From positions 1-45,862 of the forward strand of contig JANWIZ010000036.1 of the NCBI GenBank assembly GCA_025449635.1: a stretch of 45,862 nucleotides of DNA, in the 5' to 3' direction. Positions 7,795 to 29,360 of the stretch are shown piece after piece. The position numbers and the translations under genes are program-made. This DNA comes from Patescibacteria group bacterium. Lineage in GTDB: Bacteria; Patescibacteriota; Microgenomatia; Woykebacterales; RBG-16-39-9b. Position 1 is the stretch's first letter. Each line of letters starts with the position of its first letter. The notes below the pieces were generated by a model. The model had not been told where the DNA came from, made no database searches, and saw nothing but the letters and a program-made list of their open reading frames with translations.

Positions 7795-9882
<2,088 letters not shown>

Positions 9883-9894
9883 TTTTTAAATTTT

Positions 9895-12405
9895 ATGGAA
9901 GAACAAGAACAACAAGACGAACAAGTCGCAAACCAGGAAATAAATAATAATTCGATCGGAAAACTCAAAAACGTGCAAATAGTTGAGGAGATGAAAACTA
10001 GTTACCTCAACTATGCGATGAGTGTTATCGTTTCACGAGCACTTCCTGACGTTAGAGATGGTTTGAAACCAGTTCACCGCCGAATTCTTTACGCGATGAA
10101 CGAAATTGGCTTAACTCACAGTGCAAAGTATCGTAAGAGTGCAACTGTAGTCGGGGAGGTACTGGGTAAATACCACCCTCATGGTGATGGTCCAGTTTAT
10201 GACGCGATGGTACGCTTGGCCCAAGATTTTGCCATGCGTTATCCATTGGTTGACGGTCAAGGCAACTTTGGTAGTGTTGATGGGGACCCACCAGCTGCCA
10301 TGCGTTATACCGAAGCTCGTTTGGCTCAAATTTCCAATGAATTACTTGATGACATTGATAAAAATACCGTCCCCTGGGCTGACAATTTTGACGCAACCAG
10401 AAAAGAACCAATCGTCTTACCAGGAAAACTTCCCAATCTATTACTTTCTGGTGGTAGTGGAATTGCCGTTGGGATGGCAACAAACATCCCTCCTCACAAC
10501 CTCACTGAGATTTGTGATGGGATCATTCACCTAATTAATCAACCAGAAGCACCTCTTGAGGAGCTGATGGGTTTTATCAAGGGTCCAGATTTTCCAACTG
10601 GAGGAGCGATTTTTGATATTAGTGAAATAACTAATGCTTATGCGACTGGGAAGGGTAGGGTGGTGATGAGGGCAAAAGCTGAGATCGAAGAGGACAAAGC
10701 CAGCCGTTTTAAAATAATTGTTACGGAAATTCCATATCAGGTTAATAAATCTCAATTAATCTCTAGAATTGCCAATTTAGTCAAAGAAAAGAAACTCGAC
10801 GGTATTTCAGATCTTCGAGATGAATCAGATCGAACTGGTATGCGAATAATGATCGAGCTCAAGCGTGACGCCCGCCCACAAAACTTACTTAATCAACTTT
10901 TCAAACACACTAGTATGCAAATGGCTTTTAATGTCAATATGGTTGCCTTGGTTGACGGCACACCACAAATTTTAAACCTTAAACAAATTTTAACTGAATA
11001 TATTCGTCATCGCCAAGATGTCGTAACCAAACGAACCCAATTCGAACTTGATCAAGCCAAGGCACGAGCACATATTCTTGAGGGGCTCAAAATTGCACTT
11101 GATCATCTCGATGAGGTAATAAAAACGATCAGAGAGTCTGCTGATGCCGATACTGCCAAAACTAACCTGATGACCAGGTTCAAACTTAGTGATATTCAGT
11201 CTCAAGCTATTCTTGACATGCAGTTGCGCCGATTAGCAGCGCTAGAGCGAAAAAAGATTGAAGATGAGTACATTGAAGTTATGAAAACAATTGCTTATCT
11301 GGAAGATTTATTGGCTTCACCAAAGAAAATTTTGGCAGTTATCGAAACAGAGCTGAAAGAGCTTAAAAGCAAATACGGGGATGAGAGAAGAACCAGAGTC
11401 TATAAACAAGCGATTGGAGATTTTTCAGAGGAGGATTTGATTCCAGCAGAAAATGTCATCGTCACGGTTACAGAAACTGGTTATATAAAAAGAAGTCCAA
11501 CAGATACTTTCCGAACTCAACTGCGCGGGGGAAAGGGTGTAACTGGAGCAACTCTCAAAGAAGAAGATAGCATTTCTCAGTTATATTTAGCTAATACTCA
11601 TGACAACATGATGTTTTTCACAAACAAAGGTCGAGTATTTCAGATTAAGGTCTATGAACTACCAGAAGGATCCCGCCAAGCAAAGGGTCAAGCAATTATT
11701 AACTTAATAAATATCGAGCAGGGTGAGCTGGTTACCTCAATGTTTAATGTTCCTAAAAGCACTAAGTCAGGCTTTATCTTTATGGCAACGAAAAAAGGGA
11801 TCGTCAAAAAAACTGCCCTCGAAGGTTTTGCTAATATTCGTCGGTCTGGTATTATCGCGATCAATTTAAATAGTGGTGATAGCTTGCAGTTTGTTACCCT
11901 AACATCCGGAGACGAACATATAATTATGGCAACGAAAAAAGGTCAATCGATCCGCTTTCATGAGAAAAATGTTCGAGCTATGGGAAGAGCGACAGCCGGG
12001 GTGATGGGTATAAGACTCGGAAAAGATGATGAAATAATTTGCGCTTCAAAAGCACCGGAAAAAGGAGAGTTTTTGATAGTTACTGAGAAAGGCTTTGGCA
12101 AAAAAAGTAAGATCACAGACTGGCCGCTGCAGGGTCGTGCTGGTAGCGGAGTCAAAGCTGCTGAAGTCACAGCGAGAAACGGCAAAGTAATGGCTGCAAA
12201 AGTGATTGAACAAGACGATCAGGATATTTTAATAACCTCGAAAGGTGGTCAGGTCATAAAGCTCCCGATTAAGGATGTTCCATTACTCACACGTCAAACC
12301 CAAGGAGTTATTCTAATTCGACTGGCTAATAGTTCTGATGTTGTTTCTGCTGTAACAACATTTAAAAAAGAGATAAAGGCCGACGAAAAGAAAGCAAAAG
12401 AGTAA
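9895..12405 (+). CDS. gyrA: DNA gyrase subunit A
   Basis: [29 protein letters not shown] catalytic Tyr, GyrA-box variant QLRGGKG. Confidence 0.98.
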
Positions 12406-12411
12406 AAAAAG

Positions 12412-14691
12412 TTATTTTTTAGGTGACTTACGGAAGAACATTTTTCTACTTGAAGGTACACCAGGAGCAATTTCAGGTAATTTCTGTTCGAGTGAAACTG
12501 GAACAGAAAAACTAAACCTACTTCCTTTTCCAAGTTCAGATTCTACCCAAATTCTCCCTTTATGCATATCAACAATTGCTTTAGAAATGTAAAGTCCCAA
12601 TCCAGTACCTTTTGAGCCTTGTTCGAGTACTCCAGAAACTCGAAAGAACTTGGTAAACAATTTTGGTAAGGCTACACTTGGTATTCCCGGACCGGTATCG
12701 GCAACATGGGTAATAACTTCTTCTTTGTTAGATTCAAGACTGATTTCGACTGACCCGCCGGCAGGTGTGTAATTCAATGCATTGCTAACTAAGTTGGAAA
12801 CAACTTCGCTGATTCTAAATTTATCAACCAGAACAAAAGGTAGGGCAGATTTTGGCTTAACGTAAGTCAAAGTCACTTTACGCTCCTTTGCTTGCGGTAA
12901 AAAGTTACTAAAAGCTTCCTCTACAAGCGGCTCCCAAGGGGTGATTTGAGACTGAATTTGCAGAGAACCTCGCTCAATTCGAGAAACAGATAAAAGGTTC
13001 TCAACTAAAGCGGCTAATTGTGTACTTGAAATAAATGCTTTATCTAAGAACGAAACTAATTCTGGACTTAGTTGATCTTTGGTTTCTTCTTGTAAAACCG
13101 AAAGATAGCCTCGAATTGAAGTCAATGGGGTTCGAAGTTCATGAGCTGCCATCGAAACAAAATCCAACTTCATTTCCTCTAAGTCTTTTTCCTTAGAAAC
13201 ATCGTGCATTGTCACTATCGCCCCCAAATTTACACCCTCACTCTCGACTATATTGGCCGCAATAAGATTCACGTAAACAAGTTGCCCGTCGGATCTTTCT
13301 ATCTTGACCCCATTTCGGCTAAAAGTAACCATATCTTTTGACAATTGTTCTTTCGGAAAAAAGTATTCCATCAGAATTTTACCGTCATCATCATTTATGT
13401 TAAAGATTTCATCAGCCCTCTTTCCTAATACGTCACTTTCTCTAACATTGAAAATTTTCTCTGCTGCCTGATTAATAAAGGTAACAATCCCTTCTTTATC
13501 GACAACAAAAACACCCTCACTTACTCCAGAAAGTGTAATGCTTAATTTATTCCTTTCAGCGACGAGATTGTAAACCAATTTCTTCATTTCCCTCATATCA
13601 GCTGCCAGTAGGACAAAACCAACCAAAGAGCCAGATTCATCTTTGATTGGGGTTCCGGAAAGATTTACCGGGATTGTTTCTCCGGACTTTGAGGTAAATT
13701 CAAGTTCTAAACCATTAACGGCTTGCCCCGAACGAAGTTTTTCAACCAAATTCTTCTGAAAAGAAAGGGTAGTACTTTCACCCCTTAGTAAGGTTTCAAC
13801 GTTTCGATTGTAAAGTTCGTCATTTTTGAAACCAAACAAACGCTCTACAGTATCGTTAGTAAACTCAATTGTATTTCCTAAATTAAAAACAATTAAAGCT
13901 TCGTTCATTGTTCTGACTATATTTTCAAAGTGTGTTGCTGGATTAATGACGAACAATTTATACCGAAGAATTGAATAAGTTGCGAGTGCTCCCAAAACGC
14001 TAGTCAAAACAATTGCAAATCCGGGGATTCTAATATCATTAGTTAGACCTAGATTTATTATCGGTACAATAGCATCGGTTAGAGTCCCTCCTAATAAGGG
14101 GATCAAAAGTCCTACGATCAAAAACAACGTCTGCTTTTTGCGAATTTGGTCAGCCGTATGAAAATAAAACCTCACGAGAAAAACCAATGAGCTAATAAAA
14201 TAAAATTCTAGCCAAAGTATAAAAACTGGAAAAAATGATCCTAGATTTGAACTCCAACCCCAGGGAACTTTGTAGAAAGTGTCAATAGTATGAATTGAAA
14301 TAATATTTGTATTCCAAACGATGTAAAGGAAAATTATTGTCGGAGCATAGATTAAAAACTTTTTAATCAGACTGTCGACTAAGTACTCCTTACCCACAAA
14401 GGCCAAAGTAAAATTAAAAAAAGCAATCGACATAAAAACCCAACCAGGAGCTCCCACTGAAGACCAAAAATTGGCTCCCTCAGGATAAACGCTCAATCTA
14501 TTGAGAAATTCTCCAGTCCCCCATAAAACCAAGCAAAAAAGAAAAAAAGAAAACCAACGGTTAGCAGAATTTTGAATACCACGAGATAAAATCAAATAGA
14601 TCAAAAGTAAATTGCCAACTATACCAATCAATGAAAGAAGAGAATAAGGGTTAAATTGAAAACTAAGTACCTGAGCAGAAATAGGTATCAT
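12412..14691 (-). CDS. Sensor histidine kinase (N-terminal 7TM region, two PAS domains, HisKA, HATPase)
   Basis: About 7 hydrophobic helices, PAS-like repeats, AHELRTPLT H-box, NLVSNALNY, DTGPGI, GTGLGL. Confidence 0.92.
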   Translation of the reverse strand: MIPISAQVLSFQFNPYSLLSLIGIVGNLLLIYLILSRGIQNSANRWFSFFLFCLVLWGTGEFLNRLSVYPEGANFWSSVGAPGWVFMSIAFFNFTLAFVGKEYLVDSLIKKFLIYAPTIIFLYIVWNTNIISIHTIDTFYKVPWGWSSNLGSFFPVFILWLEFYFISSLVFLVRFYFHTADQIRKKQTLFLIVGLLIPLLGGTLTDAIVPIINLGLTNDIRIPGFAIVLTSVLGALATYSILRYKLFVINPATHFENIVRTMNEALIVFNLGNTIEFTNDTVERLFGFKNDELYNRNVETLLRGESTTLSFQKNLVEKLRSGQAVNGLELEFTSKSGETIPVNLSGTPIKDESGSLVGFVLLAADMREMKKLVYNLVAERNKLSITLSGVSEGVFVVDKEGIVTFINQAAEKIFNVRESDVLGKRADEIFNINDDDGKILMEYFFPKEQLSKDMVTFSRNGVKIERSDGQLVYVNLIAANIVESEGVNLGAIVTMHDVSKEKDLEEMKLDFVSMAAHELRTPLTSIRGYLSVLQEETKDQLSPELVSFLDKAFISSTQLAALVENLLSVSRIERGSLQIQSQITPWEPLVEEAFSNFLPQAKERKVTLTYVKPKSALPFVLVDKFRISEVVSNLVSNALNYTPAGGSVEISLESNKEEVITHVADTGPGIPSVALPKLFTKFFRVSGVLEQGSKGTGLGLYISKAIVDMHKGRIWVESELGKGSRFSFSVPVSLEQKLPEIAPGVPSSRKMFFRKSPKK

Positions 14692-17063: not shown

Positions 17064-17110
17064 CAAAAGGGAAGATCGCGATGGTCACTGTTAGGTGGTC
17101 GCGATCTTTT
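17064..17110 (-). terminator. Intrinsic terminator of the zinc-finger gene
   Basis: AAGATCGCGA...TCGCGATCTT inverted repeat followed by CCCTTTTG on the - strand. Confidence 0.6.
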
Positions 17111-17363
17111 GGGTTTTGCCGCAAACTGGACAAGTGTTGTAACCTTCTCCCTCTGGAAATGGTCCGCCACAGTCTGGGCAACGCTTTTCGGATGGGGGAG
17201 TCCAGGGCAACCGCTGGGTTTTAACCTTTGGTCTTACTGTCGACTCCACCTCACTGCAGTCGTGATCTTCGATGTGTTCCTTACAGAACCGTCGATCACA
17301 CTTGCTACAGTATTGATCAGAGCGGTAAGGAAGATCCTTATCGCACTTAGCACATTCGTACAA
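17091..17363 (-). CDS. Small double zinc-finger protein (AN1-like finger plus C4 zinc ribbon)
   Basis: CAKC-x11-CSKC-x4-CKEH-x3-HDC, then CPDC...CPVC; SD AAGGAG before a TTG start; own terminator. Confidence 0.75.
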   Translation of the reverse strand: MYECAKCDKDLPYRSDQYCSKCDRRFCKEHIEDHDCSEVESTVRPKVKTQRLPWTPPSEKRCPDCGGPFPEGEGYNTCPVCGKTQKIATT

Positions 17364-19228: not shown

Positions 19229-19284
19229 CCGAATAATTATTCACTATAACTAGATAATTTTTCTTTTTTTGAACCGCTTATAGG

Positions 19285-19313
19285 TTGACAAAATCCTCTT
19301 CTCGGAGTAATAT
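19285..19313 (+). promoter_or_regulatory. Sigma70 promoter for candidate ncRNA-1
   Basis: TTGACA (19285-90), 17 bp, TAATAT (19308-13); predicted TSS ~19320 coincides with the first base of the first helix. Confidence 0.8.
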
Positions 19314-19319
19314 GCTCGA

Positions 19320-19653
19320 GCACGTTTGATCTCGCAGGCAAATGATCAACACTAACAACTGGACGGGGAAGTCCTGCACAGGGAGAGATCGACATGACGT
19401 GTGACGCTGGCGGTGGAAGTGGCTGACCAACGCGGGTGAAGGGAAGTGAAAGCTTTCACCGCCAGCACCTTATGCCGGACTGCGAGGAAGCGCGCGAAGA
19501 GCGACTGAGACATTATCCCCCTCATGTTCTCGCAGCCCGGCACCAACTTGATAATTTCAATTGGGGAGGGGTGTTAGCGGTAGAAGACCAAAGTCATGGA
19601 AAACTGGGAAAGCTCATGACGATGGAGTACTCTTCTACCGCTTTATTTTTTTT
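19320..19653 (+). ncRNA. Candidate large structured ncRNA-1 (~330 nt, family unknown)
   Basis: Helices 19320-33/19385-402, 19406-20/19452-66 (15 bp), 19473-88/19527-42, 19576-87/19631-42 (12 bp), then a U-tract; G-U pairs on + only; no credible long ORF. Confidence 0.75.
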
Positions 19654-20935: not shown

Positions 20936-21985
20936 CTAACTATAAACTCCAGCGACATTCACATGCCTGACGATCTGGTGTCGAAGCAAAGACTTGATCC
21001 GATTAACCAATCCATTGCTTTGTGGAATTCGCTGATCAAAACCAAAACTCTCCAGTACTATTTCACCGACAAATCCGTTCTGACGCAAGAAGGTCAGTAC
21101 TGACCGCAGAATCTTTGGATTCATACCAGCCAAAGAATCACCACGAGCAGCAGCAAGATCAAGCATCAACCGACCGGTTTTGTTGACATCATTGGTCAGT
21201 TCATGCATGTAGCGCACTAGATCCCGAACCCAAGCTCGGTAATCAGCTCCCATCATCTGCCCAAGTTCACCACCGCGATGAGCCAAATCCGGAGCGACTT
21301 GGTGCTCAGGCATCTCAAACTTTGCAGTTGCGATCGCTACCTGCTCCAAAAGTTCAGGATTGTACTGGACCTGAATGGCTGTAAAACGGTTATACCAAAC
21401 GGTGTGTAAAGTTTCTCGCTTTCTGACTCGTACGATTCGATCAGCTGCCACTGGCGAGCTCGCTCGTACAGTCTTTGCAACCACTCCATGATAACCGTCA
21501 GTGACTCGTTCTTGAATCGTACCAAACCAAGTAACCCCAATCGGCGTCAAAACTCCACGATGTTCAAACTCTCTAGCCAGATCTTCGCGGGCAATTCTGA
21601 TCAAATCAGAAGGGTAGTAACCTAGATCCACCAAACTATCGAAATAGGGAAGGTTGTGGGTTTTTTCGTCCGGACTCCACACCTCAGCATTAAATCGTCC
21701 AAGCCAACCAACCCCAAATAGATCCGCGACCATCTGAAACTGATGATCGTAAGTTTCAGTTGCTGCTTCGGTACGGTAACCTAGCATGAGAGCATCGCGA
21801 AAGTCCTCGATACCCATCCCTTCAGGGAGACTACGACCTACTGCCGAAACATCCAAACCTTCACCAATCTCTCTGGTCAAATCAGGATGAACAAATTCCC
21901 CAGGATCCTTCAGAATCGACAAACTGTAGTCCTCAAGAGCCTTAATACCAGCTTCAGGAACAAAATAGTCCATTTTGAGAACCAA
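20936..21985 (-). CDS. Soluble acyl-ACP desaturase (ferritin-like di-iron, DesA-like), copy 1
   Basis: Di-iron ligand pattern TEAAT...WSPDEKTH...QERVT...RETLH, and FEMP; SD AAGGAGGTGA before a TTG start. Confidence 0.82.
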   Translation of the reverse strand: MVLKMDYFVPEAGIKALEDYSLSILKDPGEFVHPDLTREIGEGLDVSAVGRSLPEGMGIEDFRDALMLGYRTEAATETYDHQFQMVADLFGVGWLGRFNAEVWSPDEKTHNLPYFDSLVDLGYYPSDLIRIAREDLAREFEHRGVLTPIGVTWFGTIQERVTDGYHGVVAKTVRASSPVAADRIVRVRKRETLHTVWYNRFTAIQVQYNPELLEQVAIATAKFEMPEHQVAPDLAHRGGELGQMMGADYRAWVRDLVRYMHELTNDVNKTGRLMLDLAAARGDSLAGMNPKILRSVLTFLRQNGFVGEIVLESFGFDQRIPQSNGLVNRIKSLLRHQIVRHVNVAGVYS

Positions 21986-22070
21986 TTCTCACCTCCTTTT
22001 TTGATCTCTACAGTAATTTTAGTATAACATCTGAGAAGTAACCGCACCTTAAAATCCAAATGGAGGAAAA

Positions 22071-23327
22071 ATGAGAGTCGTCATCACTGGAATGGGAGCG
22101 ATCACTCCTGTCGGCAAAACGCCAAAAGAGATCTTTTCCGCAGTTGTGAACAAAAAATCTGGGATTCGTGAGGTAAAATCGTTTCCGCTTGATGAAAATC
22201 ACCTTTGCCGTGTTGCTGGTGAGGTAGATTTTAATCCAAGCTGGTTGGATCGCTTGATTCATCGAAAGGATCAGCGAAAAATCGCTCGAGCCTCGCAATT
22301 TCAAATGTATGCGATCGATCAAGCACTTATTGACGCCAAACTTCTTTACAAACATTTGACTCCAAAGCTGGCTCAGCGTATTGGCATTTGCGTTGGTGCC
22401 AGTATGATCGGGATGTCAGATGTTATTTATGAGGTTGGTCGTTACCGAGATTCTGGTGCAAGATTTATTTCTGCGGCTTTGATCCAAAAAATCATGCCGA
22501 ATGCCGCTGCTGCTCGACCTTCACTACACAGTCAGATTCATGGTCCGGTCTATACGACATCAGCTGCTTGTGCAACAAGTGCAATGAGTATGATCGATGC
22601 TTATAAAATGATTACAGATTTGGAATGTGACGTTGTAGTAACTGGTGGTTGTGAAGATGCGCTTGATCCAATTTCTTTGGCTTCTTTTGGCAATTTGACA
22701 GCGCTTTCAACCAGCTGGAACGATCAACCGCATAAAGCACTTCGTCCGTTTGACTCAAAACGAAATGGTTTTGTACCAGGCGAGGGGGGAGTTGCTTTTG
22801 TTTTTGAAGGTTTGGATCACGCTCTAGCCAGAAAGGCAAATATTTACGCAGAAGTCGTTGGCTACTGTCGCAATTCCGATGCTCACAACATCGTTCACCC
22901 GCACCCTGAAGGGACTTGGCAAGCACTATGCATGTCAACCGCTCTGGAAAGGGCAGGGGTAACACCGTCAAATCTGAGCTATATCAATGCTCACGGAACA
23001 GGTACTCCGGAAGGAGACCCGTCTGAGTGCCGGGCAATCGCTACTTGTCTTGGTAAAGATGTGAAAAAAGTTCCAGTTTCTTCCAGCAAAGGTGTTCTCA
23101 GCCATTTGATGAGTGCCTCAGCTGCAGCTGAACTGTTAATTTGTGTCGAAGCGATAATGCAAAATATTATCCCTCCAACTACCAATCTAGAAGTTATTGA
23201 CGCTGAATGCACTGATCTTCACCATGTCACCAAAGCTTTCAGATCTGAAGTGACTGCAGTGATGAATAATTCGTTTGGATTTGGTGGGGAAAATACTGCC
23301 ATGGTTGTGAAAAAATTTACAGAATAA
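22071..23327 (+). CDS. fabF: Beta-ketoacyl-ACP synthase II
   Basis: RVVITGMG, SAACATS catalytic Cys, YINAHGTGT, SHL, NSFGFGG (Cys-His-His triad). Confidence 0.93.
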   Translation: MRVVITGMGAITPVGKTPKEIFSAVVNKKSGIREVKSFPLDENHLCRVAGEVDFNPSWLDRLIHRKDQRKIARASQFQMYAIDQALIDAKLLYKHLTPKLAQRIGICVGASMIGMSDVIYEVGRYRDSGARFISAALIQKIMPNAAAARPSLHSQIHGPVYTTSAACATSAMSMIDAYKMITDLECDVVVTGGCEDALDPISLASFGNLTALSTSWNDQPHKALRPFDSKRNGFVPGEGGVAFVFEGLDHALARKANIYAEVVGYCRNSDAHNIVHPHPEGTWQALCMSTALERAGVTPSNLSYINAHGTGTPEGDPSECRAIATCLGKDVKKVPVSSSKGVLSHLMSASAAAELLICVEAIMQNIIPPTTNLEVIDAECTDLHHVTKAFRSEVTAVMNNSFGFGGENTAMVVKKFTE

Positions 23328-23334
23328 ATCTGTT

Positions 23335-23376
23335 AAAAGCCCGTTGGGATATCAATCCAATCAATGGGCTTTTTTT
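23335..23376 (+). terminator. Intrinsic terminator of fabF
   Basis: AAAAGCCCGTTG...CAATGGGCTTTTTTT. Confidence 0.8.
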
Positions 23377-23441
23377 ATTACTTTTATAACTATTATGAGT
23401 CAACCTATTGCTTTTTTAATTCCTTTAGTAAATAATTTTTA

Positions 23442-23746
23442 TGTAATCCTGTGTGAAAGAGCGTGAAGAAAGGAGACCGCGCACTTTTCCGATATATAAA
23501 GGCGGCCAGACTCCATCATGACCCCCTCTAGTATCGTGATTCGCACAAAACAGAGCAGAGCTGGACAACACGGGCGCACATTCCCAACCGGATTTTGCCG
23601 CCCACACAGGATTGCACGACAACCAGAGCCCGGAGATAGACTGTCGATCCGCCGACAGGTGAAAACGCCGCACCCCCCGCAGATTTTTCACGAGAGTAAC
23701 GAGAGGAGCACTCTTTACTCTTTTTCTATTTTCGGGCAACTTTTTT
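23442..23746 (+). ncRNA. Candidate large structured ncRNA-2 (~305 nt, two multibranch domains, family unknown)
   Basis: 14-bp closing helix 23442-55/23603-16. 13-bp closing helix 23628-40/23725-37 encloses three abutting hairpins. U-tract at 23741-46. Promoter TTGCTT-17-AATAAT at 23408-36. Confidence 0.75.
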
Positions 23747-23750
23747 GAAT

Positions 23751-23787
23751 AAAAAAACCGCCCTAGTAGAGAAAACTAACGCGGTTA
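23751..23787 (-). terminator. Intrinsic terminator of desaturase 2
   Basis: - strand AACCGCGTTAG...CTAGGGCGGTTTTTTT. Confidence 0.75.
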
Positions 23788-23812
23788 AAACTTACCTCTC
23801 TAAAAACTTCAA

Positions 23813-24805
23813 TTAAGCAGCAACCAACTGGAAACTACCATCCGAAACCAACTGATAAACCTCAGCTCCTTCAGGTATTCCCTCCAAAGGCTTATTGGGT
23901 AGAACAACAACGGCATTCTCGGGAAGCTCTTGAACTGCAACTTCAGCTGCTCTGACCGCATTGCGATCTTTCAAACCCATACTCTGGATTGCTGGGCTAA
24001 GAACACTTCTACCCCAATCCATCAACGAGAAAACACCCGCCGAATAAACCGTTGCCTCGAATTGCTCCTTGTTGGGAAACCTAACTTCTGGCATACGATA
24101 CGTGGCGAAAGCCTGATTCATCGCTTCAATTGCAAGATCAGGTCGGTATCGTAGGTAAATGCGAAGAATTTCTCGAAAATTACTTTCGTGAGCACCTTCG
24201 TCACGTTCCACATACCAAACCATCATACTCAACACCAAAAGCAGAGGGTTTTTGGTTCTTTCATACTCTGCTTTGAGGAATTGGCGAAAGCGGTGATAGT
24301 TATGCTTGGTCTGACGCTCTTGGACAATACCATAAGCCGAAGCGTTATAAGGTGTCGCTGCGTGTCCGGTTTGGCGCTCAAACACCCACGTATCCTCAGA
24401 AGCCTCTTCCAAGAATTTGTCTACCTCTGCCTGTGTTGCCAATCCAGAGTCAACCAAACTATAACGAAAGGTCTGACCGTGCTTACGCTCTTCGACACCC
24501 CAACCAATTGTCGCTTCACGAATCGTAATACTGTCACCAGCACCTTGAATACCAGCGAAAACATAATCGTCAACAAACGACTCAACCCCAAGAAACCCAA
24601 AAAGCATTTCCCGAATTTCTGAAATAAGCTGAGCCGCTACTTCACGATACCGACGAAGTTCATCTCGCTCTTTAAGACGCTTCGGAAACCATGCACGAGC
24701 CACTACCGCTTTAGCAAAATAGGTATCGTATTGAGTACGAATAGCCTTCTGAATCGCGGTCTCTTTACCAACCAAAGTAATCGGATCGGTATTGAGATAA
24801 ACCAA
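23813..24805 (-). CDS. Soluble acyl-ACP desaturase (ferritin-like di-iron, DesA-like), copy 2
   Basis: GVESFVDDY...WGVEERKH...QERQT...RDEGAH...YRMP; SD AAGGAGGG before a TTG start. Confidence 0.87.
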   Translation of the reverse strand: MVYLNTDPITLVGKETAIQKAIRTQYDTYFAKAVVARAWFPKRLKERDELRRYREVAAQLISEIREMLFGFLGVESFVDDYVFAGIQGAGDSITIREATIGWGVEERKHGQTFRYSLVDSGLATQAEVDKFLEEASEDTWVFERQTGHAATPYNASAYGIVQERQTKHNYHRFRQFLKAEYERTKNPLLLVLSMMVWYVERDEGAHESNFREILRIYLRYRPDLAIEAMNQAFATYRMPEVRFPNKEQFEATVYSAGVFSLMDWGRSVLSPAIQSMGLKDRNAVRAAEVAVQELPENAVVVLPNKPLEGIPEGAEVYQLVSDGSFQLVAA

Positions 24806-24886
24806 TAATCTTCCCTCCTTTTCTGTGATCTCAACTCTTGAGGGGAGTATAACATTTTTTGCTTCAGTTTTTTTGTTTTTCGGATA

Positions 24887-25672
24887 TTAAAGTTTCGAGG
24901 CACGCCAACCAGCAGTTTGGGCTTCTTGCTCAGTACAAAACCAACGTTCACCTTTACTTTCATCAATACTAGTTTTGTCGTAATAACTACCATTAGGAAT
25001 ATGGTAGATCTTTTCACCAGAACTGGAGATGTTTCCTTTGATTTTACAATCAGAATTTGAGTTTAGGGTGGTTAGAGAATAATTTGTACTTGACTGCACC
25101 TGACCAGAACCAAGACTACAACTGCCCCAAAGCCCTTTTTTACTGTTTCGGGCAGAGGTTTCAGCTGCTTTAAATTTGTCTTGATACTTTACATCTGGAG
25201 GGTAAGAAGCTGCTTTGCCAAAGCCCTCACTAACCAAGTATTCATTTACAAAAGTTTCGTCAACATAGACGTACCGAAGCAATCGTCCATATCGGTCAGT
25301 CTCAGAAACATCCTTCTCCAAACGGACTTTTTTACCTTCGACCAAGTCCTTGTTTTTATTTGAAGCTTCTTTTCCGTAACAGCCGACTGTCTGTCTGGGA
25401 TCTACAGTCTCTGGGGTATCAATACCGATATAGCGAACTTTTTGTCCACCCTCGATCTCGATGGTGTCGCCGTCAACAATTTTTGTAACTAAGATACCTT
25501 CTTGGGAATTACTTCCTGAATTAGAGGTGGTATTTTCTGATTGTTCTGTTTCTGTAGAATTATTGCCAGATTTATTAACAGTAATATTTTGAGAGGATAA
25601 CCCTTGTGAAAAAAGTACCAAAACAAGAAATACGGCAAACCCAAGTAGAGGATAGAAAAGTTTTTCTTTCAT
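24887..25672 (-). CDS. Membrane-anchored thermonuclease (SNase) with a C-terminal Ada-like/CxIKGNI domain
   Basis: IVDGDTI, VRYIGIDTPE, DRYGRLLRY, ARNSKKGLW; CKIKGNIS..KIYH..WFCTEQEA. Confidence 0.92.
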   Translation of the reverse strand: MKEKLFYPLLGFAVFLVLVLFSQGLSSQNITVNKSGNNSTETEQSENTTSNSGSNSQEGILVTKIVDGDTIEIEGGQKVRYIGIDTPETVDPRQTVGCYGKEASNKNKDLVEGKKVRLEKDVSETDRYGRLLRYVYVDETFVNEYLVSEGFGKAASYPPDVKYQDKFKAAETSARNSKKGLWGSCSLGSGQVQSSTNYSLTTLNSNSDCKIKGNISSSGEKIYHIPNGSYYDKTSIDESKGERWFCTEQEAQTAGWRASKL

Positions 25673-25706
25673 CTCTTCTAGATTAACTTAAATAAAAACT
25701 GAATAC

Positions 25707-25748
25707 AAAAAAGAAAAGGGAAGCTGTCAAAAAGTGACAAATTCCCTT
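25707..25748 (-). terminator. Intrinsic terminator of the DegV gene
   Basis: - strand AAGGGAATTTGTCA..TGACAGCTTCCCTTTTCTTTTTT. Confidence 0.7.
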
Positions 25749-25749
25749 A

Positions 25750-26673
25750 TTAGTCATAAACGATAATCATCGCAACATACTTGGGACCAGTAATCGAAAG
25801 AAGAGCAATCGGCAGTACTTCTCTTTCAATTATCTCAGCCTGTGTGTGACCAAGCAACGATCCCACAATTGTACCGGTTTCAAACGAAGATTCTCGCTGA
25901 TATAGGTAAATCTTTTTAATACCTTTACCCATTTCGACCCTTTTCTCAACTTCCTTGCAAATCGCAGCTACCATTGGTTGAAAGGTACGAGAAATACCGA
26001 CAATTTTCTCTTTCCCCTCCATGAGCGTCAAAGCCAATTTGGGAGAGTGGTGCGTCCGACGAGCAAACCAGGCAGCCAAATTTCGAGCGTAGTGCTTCAG
26101 TGTTTCTCTCAGTTTGTGGGAGGCCAACTCTTCGATCCGACCGCTAGCTGTGATGTAGTCGATCTTATCAAGCGCCAGGAACAGTTCAACTTTACCTGCC
26201 AATCTCTCCATTCGATGAACGATGTGGTCAAAGATCTCACCTTGTTCAGCAAGTGCTGTTGCTTCCTGCGCCAAGTACTCGACACCAGCAGCGGTTGTAC
26301 CTGTATCGATTACTTCAACAACCACATCCGATTTTTCTTCTCTAAAAAGATTGACTGCTAGCATAGCAGAATTGTAAGTACCGCTTTTACTAGCTGGAAC
26401 AGTCAAAACCAAGAAACGATTGTAACCCTCATCTGTCATTTCCTGATAAACAGTCAAAAAATCAATCGGGGACGGTTGAGCAGTTCCCGGTGGCTTCTTG
26501 CAAGCACGTTGAATTTCGAGAAAATCTTCCGTTGAAATCTCATCCTGCTTAATCGAGATTGGATCAGGTTGATCAGTCTGATAAGTTACATAAAAAGGAA
26601 TGACTCGGTGGGCAAAAGGTGAATCCCGCAACAAACTGCCATCAGTGATTACGGCAATCCTTTCTTCGGTCAC
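25750..26673 (-). CDS. DegV/FakB-family fatty-acid-binding protein
   Basis: IAVITDGS, TAQPSP, SKSGTYNSA, VIDTGT, SGRI; SD GAGGAG before a GTG start. Confidence 0.88.
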   Translation of the reverse strand: MTEERIAVITDGSLLRDSPFAHRVIPFYVTYQTDQPDPISIKQDEISTEDFLEIQRACKKPPGTAQPSPIDFLTVYQEMTDEGYNRFLVLTVPASKSGTYNSAMLAVNLFREEKSDVVVEVIDTGTTAAGVEYLAQEATALAEQGEIFDHIVHRMERLAGKVELFLALDKIDYITASGRIEELASHKLRETLKHYARNLAAWFARRTHHSPKLALTLMEGKEKIVGISRTFQPMVAAICKEVEKRVEMGKGIKKIYLYQRESSFETGTIVGSLLGHTQAEIIEREVLPIALLSITGPKYVAMIIVYD

Positions 26674-28886: not shown

Positions 28887-28950
28887 ATTCTATCATATCT
28901 TATAGTATATGTCAATGTGACTTGACTCTTGCATAATCTTAGGGTAAAAT
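28887..28950. promoter_or_regulatory. Back-to-back divergent sigma70 promoters
   Basis: - strand TTGACA (28915-10)-17-TAGAAT (28892-87); + strand TTGACT (28922-27)-17-TAAAAT (28945-50). Confidence 0.78.
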
Positions 28951-28957
28951 GCTTTTC

Positions 28958-29265
28958 AGCTCAATTACCTTCGGGAGATTTTGAGATAGGCTCTTGGGCC
29001 TGCGAGAAAGGAAGATAATTGAGTTAGGGAAGACTCTGGTGTGGATGCCACAGAGAATAAAACTAGGAGTGAGACCTAGTCGGGGTTTGCCTTGATCCCC
29101 GTTAGAGCTTTCGTTCTCCAAGGACAGTGACTCATCTTTTGTGAAATAATGAGGAGATGAGTGGAGTATGTAAATCACACATACTTTGAGTCTGTTCTGC
29201 CAAAAACTTGCACGAAAAAGGGCTATCCCAACTCTGCAAGTCGTGTGTCTTCCCGAATTTTTTTT
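28958..29265 (+). ncRNA. Candidate large structured ncRNA-3 (~308 nt, family unknown)
   Basis: Helix 28958-67/29016-25. Long-range GGGAAGAC/GTCTTCCC (29027-34/29247-54) encloses at least 7 helices. U8 tract at 29258-65. Starts 7 nt after the -10 box. Confidence 0.75.
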
Positions 29266-29360
29266 AAATCGTAGCAACCTCAAATTTTCGTATTTAAATA
29301 TAAGCTCCCTAGGTATATACTCAAACTACTATATAGAGAGATCAGGAAAGGAGGTTTTCC

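Follow-up and report, generated by a model that had tools for sequence, protein, structure and literature searches.

Soluble acyl-acyl carrier protein (ACP) desaturases of plants, with structures from castor (the delta-9 18:0 enzyme, 1afr/1oq4/2xz1), ivy (2uw1) and Thunbergia (7pp7/7t63), are homodimers built on a four-helix-bundle di-iron fold. In mycobacteria, DesA1 and DesA2 work with KasA and KasB in meromycolate synthesis, and in Firmicutes exogenous fatty acids are activated by the FakA/FakB (DegV) route and elongated by FabF. Here we describe a locus with partial likeness to these systems. In a 45,862-nucleotide contig (JANWIZ010000036.1) of a Patescibacteria group bacterium, the whole of which was analysed and is called the window below, a gene for a FabF-like beta-ketoacyl-ACP synthase II (KAS II) lies between the genes of two desaturase-like di-iron proteins, with a gene for a DegV/FakB-type protein nearby. 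On whether these four genes make up an acyl-chain tailoring set in a genome of the Patescibacteria, or candidate phyla radiation (CPR), our judgement is evenly divided. The locus would represent a known kind of enzyme in an unexpected lineage, with a function predicted from sequence and structural models.

CPR bacteria have fatty-acid-based membranes, yet their genomes hold no known route to make or tailor fatty acids. Statements on the papers cited here by PMC number refer to excerpts of their texts. In a set of 675 CPR genomes, neither a complete lipid pathway nor ACP-producing or ACP-requiring machinery was reported, and a proposal based on lipidomics holds that these bacteria scavenge lipids and "introduce modifications" (PMC7242380); Patescibacteria are also described as lacking fatty-acid synthesis in a study that predicts transfer of acpP into them (PMC12455944). 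Partial sets have been published, namely a near-complete pathway for fatty-acid synthesis of type II (FAS-II) in some Nealsonbacteria (PMC7242380), a partial set in the Saccharibacterium T. rhizospherense (PMC6031116), and AccC, FabK, FabG and a FabA-like protein, short of a full pathway, in Minisyncoccus archaeiphilus (PMC12281837). An earlier first-pass annotation of this DNA noted that CPR bacteria are generally described as lacking fatty-acid synthesis; given the published partial sets, FabF alone is less surprising than was assumed there. Our locus resembles the published sets in holding isolated fatty-acid genes in a genome of a kind judged unable to make fatty acids. Those sets, however, list FabG, FabK, FabA-like proteins, AccC and thioesterases, and in the excerpts none is a KAS II flanked by soluble desaturase-like genes. 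The paper retrieved for Patescibacteria and desaturase deals, as excerpted, with carotenoid desaturases only (PMC9948471), and our search found no literature linking CPR bacteria or Patescibacteria with FabF, ketoacyl-ACP synthase, acyl-ACP desaturase or DegV in such an arrangement, although supplementary gene tables might list such genes.

The features of the locus are as follows.

20936..21985, minus strand: desat-like 1 (P0001), an open reading frame (ORF) of 349 residues
21986..22070: spacer of 85 bp separating the genes of desat-like 1 and FabF, which are transcribed divergently
22071..23327, plus strand: FabF-like KAS II (P0003), 418 residues
23430..23725 (approximate bounds), plus strand: candidate structured non-coding RNA (ncRNA-2), from fold statistics
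23813..24805, minus strand: desat-like 2 (P0002), 330 residues
24887..25672, minus strand: Staphylococcal-nuclease homologue with a C-terminal "sunset" domain, from Pfam and NCBIfam
25750..26673, minus strand: DegV/FakB-family (fatty-acid-binding) protein (P0004), 307 residues

The first-pass annotation had read two divergent di-iron ORFs with intact ligand sets on either side of an intact FabF, with DegV nearby, and each of these genes is found where it was placed. Desat-like 1 and FabF stand head to head, an arrangement from which a common regulatory region may be surmised, and FabF and desat-like 2 stand tail to tail across a gap of 485 bp. DegV, the nuclease and desat-like 2 form a minus-strand run, separated by 77 and 81 bp, which places the DegV gene 0.9 kb beyond desat-like 2. 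The 349 residues of P0001 are counted from a TTG; in the database, the protein begins at codon 5, an ATG, and is 345 residues long.

Both di-iron proteins appear, from sequence motifs and modelled folds, to be remote members of the soluble acyl-ACP desaturase superfamily that belong to two separate, uncharacterised subfamilies; their activity and substrate are predicted. As in the plant enzymes, the di-iron ligands number six and follow one another as E, EXXH, E, EXXH, a set that is complete in P0001 (E73, E107-x-x-H110, E159 and E191-x-x-H194) and in P0002 (E75, E106-x-x-H109, E163 and E203-x-x-H206). Two acyl-ACP desaturase motifs are likewise kept in both families, W-x-x-(D/E)-E-x-x-H at the second ligand and Q-E-R-x-T at the third, the threonine of which we take to correspond to castor T199. 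The ligands of P0002 are invariant in 23 family sequences, and Q162, E163, R164 and T166 are invariant in the alignment of that family (A2). When 40 full-length sequences of the P0001 family are aligned, its six ligands and W103 are the sole invariant columns, and Q158 and T162 are almost invariant in the alignment of its family (A3).

AlphaFold2 models were built with good confidence on the family alignments (pLDDT 91.9 and pTM 0.91 for P0001; pLDDT 88.0 and pTM 0.87 for P0002) and compared with the PDB by Foldseek. For P0001, the castor, ivy and Thunbergia acyl-ACP desaturases are the best matches (TMq 0.54-0.58, best E 6.7e-6, 15-17% identity), and these enzymes are also the best matches of P0002 (TMq 0.57-0.61, best E 2.7e-5, 16-20% identity). 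Every match at E<=0.001 in both lists is a plant acyl-ACP desaturase (TMq 0.50-0.61). The structure of mycobacterial DesA2 (1za0) occurs in both lists as well (TMt 0.62-0.63), below the plant enzymes (E 1.7e-3 and 1.9e-2). By an analogy drawn from general knowledge, the mycobacterial system resembles the locus in its two paralogous soluble desaturase-like proteins and a KAS II-type enzyme; unlike that system, the locus gives no sign of very long chains or of actinobacterial kinship.

At the level of sequence, P0002 scores 40.8 bits against Pfam PF03405 (FA_desaturase_2), above the gathering cut-off of 22.7, and the profile of its family reaches plant acyl-ACP desaturases in the PDB at E 2.2e-4, with W-x-x-E-E-x-x-H-G, Q-E-R-x-T and D-E-x-x-H-E aligned to the Thunbergia 16:0-ACP desaturase (7pp7). 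In the family of P0001, PF03405 is matched by 18 of 40 members at E<=0.01 (best 3.7e-8), and of the 22 weak outer matches of its A3 profile that were scanned, 18 are PF03405 proteins. Aligned to each other with hhalign, A3 and A2 agree over that same core (probability 94.6%, E 6.6e-8, 129 columns), where A3 reads W-S-P-D-E-K-T-H, Q-E-R-V-T and R-E-T-L-H.

Each subfamily also has a feature that sets it apart from the plant enzymes. Residues 298-329 of P0002 (23813-23914) form a C-terminal three-strand beta element in the AlphaFold2 model, an extra conserved element in whose region P295, G323 and F325 are invariant in the family. In the other family, P0039, P0046 and P0049 have N-terminal extensions of about 70-100 residues, each with a single hydrophobic helix. 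This hints that some relatives of desat-like 1 are membrane-anchored and may work at the membrane, leaving room for a substrate other than acyl-ACP.

In one alternative, the di-iron proteins are oxidases or hydroxylases of some other compound (R2lox-, AurF- or ferritin-like) and their proximity to FabF and DegV is coincidental. The very low sequence similarity to characterised desaturases and the want of lipid-gene context in 21 Chloroflexota loci described below would fit it, as would Atlas neighbours that include clusters labelled AurF or Rubrerythrin by Pfam, and the presence, lower in both fold lists, of R2lox (TMq 0.36-0.46) and of the R2 subunit of ribonucleotide reductase (RNR R2; TMq 0.22-0.50, and at most 0.31 for P0001). 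Yet acyl-ACP desaturases outrank all other folds for both models, Q-E-R-x-T and W-x-x-(D/E)-E-x-x-H are kept and are invariant or nearly so, the one gene that the two have as a common neighbour in the window encodes a fatty-acid enzyme, and the only sequence-level match to R2 has E 0.38. We consider this alternative unlikely.

FabF carries both ketosynthase domains (PF00109, 134 bits; PF02801, 109 bits), its best PDB match is Thermus FabF (1j3n, E 2.5e-84), and the triad C167, H308 and H345, together with K340 and the gating F402, aligns with the catalytic positions of that structure. Among the NCBIfam models, those for FabF score P0003 best, ahead of FabB and polyketide synthase models. DegV is matched by PF02645 (113.9 bits against a cut-off of 27) and by TIGR00762 (113 bits against 99.7), and its match to FakB3 in the PDB (6cng) has E 3.1e-14. 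The presence of a DegV/FakB protein and FabF within 3 kb is a likeness to the Firmicute FakA/FakB route; unlike that route, the window holds no FakA, PlsX, ACP or reductive-cycle gene, and DegV lies far below the cut-off of the FakB1 equivalog model NF038249 (51 bits against 350).

Both di-iron subfamilies are rare. In word-indexed searches of 5.8 billion clusters, P0002 retrieved 23 proteins and P0001 retrieved 3, the query included in each case, and the profile of the P0001 family, which is much more diverse than that of P0002, when run with HMMER over the full 1.84 billion representatives, gave 115 matches at E<=1e-3 and 55 at E<=1e-30. A scan of one genome per GTDB species, among which the genome of the window is not included, placed the P0002 family in 21 loci, all of them (21 of 21) from Dehalococcoidia, SAR202 or Chloroflexota metagenome-assembled genomes and with 40-53% identity to P0002. 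For P0001, the top-scoring Atlas neighbour is a 73-member cluster in which Chloroflexota is the commonest phylum; as the phylum is known for 14 members, this is a lead only. Outside the window, both subfamilies seem to be found mainly in Chloroflexota, and they are not of the plant or actinobacterial type of desaturase that the first-pass annotation had in mind. A tblastn search of plasmids with desat-like 2 yielded one record, a "fatty acid desaturase" of a Deinococcus plasmid with 24% identity and an uninformative neighbourhood.

In a finished LG+G4 tree, calculated with no outgroup and used to infer neither root nor direction of transfer, P0002 and five metagenomic proteins (P0007-P0011, 51-71% identical) are split with 100/100 support from the other 36 rows, which include all 19 complete Chloroflexota genes. 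A quick mixture-model tree with an outgroup left the base unresolved, so it gives no direction of transfer. P0001 groups with P0032 (42% identity), and the Dehalococcoidia member from one of the 21 loci, L017, lies at a great distance from it. Since the di-iron copies of the window form their own deep branches, they probably reflect old sharing or exchange and not recent import.

Gene context was compared among the 21 Chloroflexota loci in flanks of at most 10 kb per side (phmmer, E<=1e-5, with Pfam on 72 neighbouring ORFs). The two rare di-iron families, 1.8 kb apart in the window, are 0.7 kb apart in the Dehalococcoidia locus L017. As the copies in that locus are not close kin of those in the window, the pairing would have arisen or been kept independently in the two, and a link between the two di-iron genes is supported. 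In L017, both subfamilies (10001-12846) lie downstream of genes for an alpha/beta-hydrolase (Abhydrolase_3) and a major facilitator superfamily transporter.

A number of observations weigh against the reading of the locus as an acyl-chain tailoring set. L017 is the only one of the 21 loci in which a partner of the P0001 family lies near the P0002-family gene; relatives of the FabF or DegV of the window occur in 0 of 21; and no conserved gene context recurs, the P0002-family gene standing alone among changing neighbours. In the window itself, the nuclease gene separates DegV from desat-like 2 and the rest. What the first-pass annotation called a cluster finds partial support: the di-iron pair is adjacent in one further locus, the link to FabF, which has the short divergent spacer with desat-like 1 in its favour, is suggestive, and that to DegV is weak. 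The di-iron proteins share only 15-20% identity with characterised desaturases, at moderate TM values of about 0.6 (0.54-0.61). P0001 scores 19.0 bits against PF03405, under the cut-off that P0002 passes, and the profile of its family finds no desaturase by sequence in the PDB; neither protein has an NCBIfam match or finds a PDB desaturase by phmmer, and the earlier description of both as divergent is borne out. FabF falls under both of its NCBIfam cut-offs (TIGR03150, 391.4 against 493.75 bits; NF005589, 385 against 387), from which we take P0003 to be a somewhat divergent KAS II with intact catalytic residues, and FabF alone cannot elongate. DegV aligns to solved FakB/DegV proteins over residues 5-185 only, that is, in its N-terminal half, the C-terminal half remaining unmatched; here, too, it departs from Firmicute FakB.

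The missing partners weigh in the same direction. Pfam scans of all 45 non-overlapping ORFs of at least 100 residues, a check by eye of 26 small intergenic ORFs and scans of 4 of these together with 7 larger unannotated ORFs found no ACP (PP-binding), FabD, FabG, FabZ, FabI, FakA, PlsX, PlsY, PlsC or ferredoxin in the 45.9-kb window, in agreement with the first-pass annotation. Finally, a promoter and terminator consensus scan remained at the level of shuffled sequence (13 sites where 10.1 were expected, and 8 where 7.6 were), so that it does not establish transcription units.

Nevertheless, the genes are real and have intact active sites, the folds and motifs of the di-iron proteins are desaturase-like, and the genes sit in a CPR context with native codon use. 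If the acyl-chain tailoring reading is right, the substrates would be fatty acyl chains and the three enzymes would act in one pathway. FabF would condense an acyl thioester with malonyl-ACP, adding C2 units; the two di-iron enzymes would draw on O2 and on a donor of the ferredoxin or flavodoxin type, which supplies two electrons, in order to remove hydrogens and create a cis double bond, or would alternatively carry out a related oxidation, at two different positions or on two chain lengths; and DegV would bind free fatty acid for a kinase. Every step past the intact active sites and the desaturase-like fold we infer from established knowledge of the families. The ACP, malonyl-ACP supply, reductive cycle and electron donor would be encoded elsewhere or obtained otherwise, and the window alone cannot decide between scavenged chains and chains made de novo.

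The second of these sources is the basis of another alternative, according to which a complete or near-complete FAS-II with ACP is encoded elsewhere in the genome and the locus serves ordinary de novo synthesis with aerobic desaturases, with neither scavenging nor host ACP. FabF, as a plain KAS II with intact residues and native codon use, would suit such a pathway. Bacterial fab genes usually cluster, however, and no other fab gene accompanies FabF within 20 kb on either side. Precedents in the excerpted literature are the near-complete FAS-II of some Nealsonbacteria (PMC7242380), the partial sets of the Saccharibacterium (PMC6031116) and Minisyncoccus (PMC12281837) and the predicted horizontal acquisition of acpP in Patescibacteria (PMC12455944), against which stands the report that 675 CPR genomes yielded neither a complete pathway nor ACP-dependent machinery (PMC7242380). 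On balance, de novo synthesis seems to us a rather doubtful account of the locus.

A more far-reaching form of the tailoring reading, which we hold to be distinctly improbable, is that a CPR episymbiont whose ACP machinery is scant or lacking lengthens and desaturates the acyl chains of another cell with a KAS II and two Chloroflexota-type di-iron desaturases. If true, it would for the first time provide candidate enzymes for the "scavenge, then modify" model of CPR lipids derived from lipidomics, and the two rare families in common would mark Dehalococcoidia/SAR202 as a long-term gene-exchange partner or host. Should the genes be active, they would offer concrete, expressible enzymes with which to test the elongation and desaturation of acquired acyl chains in CPR bacteria, and would connect a lipid reaction that depends on O2 with a lineage for the most part described as fermentative. 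Exposure to O2 does occur in this lineage, as indicated by the cytochrome bo3 oxidase of a soil Saccharibacterium in the excerpted account (PMC6031116). The two di-iron subfamilies are of interest in themselves: they branch deeply within the acyl-ACP desaturase superfamily, are uncharacterised, and occur mainly in Dehalococcoidia/SAR202, whose lipid biochemistry is little known; one of the two subfamilies is invisible at the Pfam cut-off.

The first-pass annotation had taken the genome to be probably CPR and had named gyrB as the gene with which to confirm this. GyrB (7846-9882) has unnamed relatives with 91-92% identity; its best organism-named match is a Candidatus Saccharimonadales protein (81%), followed by Woykebacteria (70-74%) and "Patescibacteria group" (68-70%). 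Among the 120 matches listed, 14 are organism-named, of which 10 are CPR, 2 are "bacterium" and 2 are "Nanoarchaeia archaeon", with none from a bacterial phylum outside the CPR. GyrB thus supports, at the level of the radiation and not of a class within it, a CPR origin of the contig, as had been supposed. The window further holds a type IV pilus operon and the sunset-domain nuclease; sunset domains are typical of the CPR lineage. The gyrB/gyrA and pilus genes lie upstream of the di-iron and FabF genes, and the sunset-domain nuclease, DUF192 and others lie within or downstream of them. The four genes are resident, being neither a recent import nor the product of an assembly chimera. That the contig is not CPR, or joins CPR sequence with gyrB and pilus genes to Chloroflexota sequence with the desaturase-like genes, is very improbable: all 21 genome loci with P0002 relatives are from Chloroflexota and the four genes are richer in guanine plus cytosine (GC) than any others in the window (0.444-0.473, where the genes average 0.394 with a standard deviation of 0.037), but their synonymous codon use is typical of the contig (z -0.51, +0.28, -0.24 and -0.20), CPR-type genes stand on both sides, and P0002 is only 40-53% identical to the Chloroflexota proteins and falls in the separate, fully supported clade with five metagenomic proteins.

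The nuclease between DegV and desat-like 2 is matched by PF00565 (89.8 bits), NF047694 (131 bits) and the sunset model NF051437 (47 bits); it would be a secreted enzyme and is probably not part of lipid metabolism. The same scan gave weak matches to sunset variants of the ribosomal proteins L17 and L4.

Elsewhere in the window, ARAGORN found no tRNA or tmRNA, and the four large intergenic gaps have no repeat in common. In the 503-bp gap after a XerC-like recombinase gene lies a 90-residue Cys-rich ORF (17091-17363, minus strand) with two zinc-ribbon-like CxxC pairs, whose matches to Pfam zinc-ribbon families are all sub-threshold. A 114-residue ORF at 28939-29283 (minus strand) with no family match departs much further than any other gene of the window from the usual synonymous codon choice (z -3.9) and may not be a real gene, or may be foreign.

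The ncRNA-2 that the first-pass annotation placed inside the gene group is a real GC-rich structured stretch, located in the gap where the 3' ends of FabF and desat-like 2 converge. Folding of its plus strand yields -105.1 kcal/mol (z -5.56), a value matched by 0 of 100 shuffles, and folding of its minus strand gives z -2.05; a terminal hairpin followed by a U-run can be read from the sequence. No Rfam family reaches its gathering score on this stretch, and matches admitted by an E-value threshold are at chance level, none of them over the GC-rich core. It is a candidate for a novel small RNA of about 290 nt. A second GC-rich (0.49) intergenic stretch, at 19229-19642 on the plus strand, has a promoter-like site (TTGACA-17-TAATAT) at 19285-19313. 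It has no similarity to ncRNA-2, and its only Rfam match at E<=1 is a chance match to a long non-coding RNA. From position 19315, the plus strand of this stretch folds with z -4.62, and its final hairpin may be the terminator of DinB.

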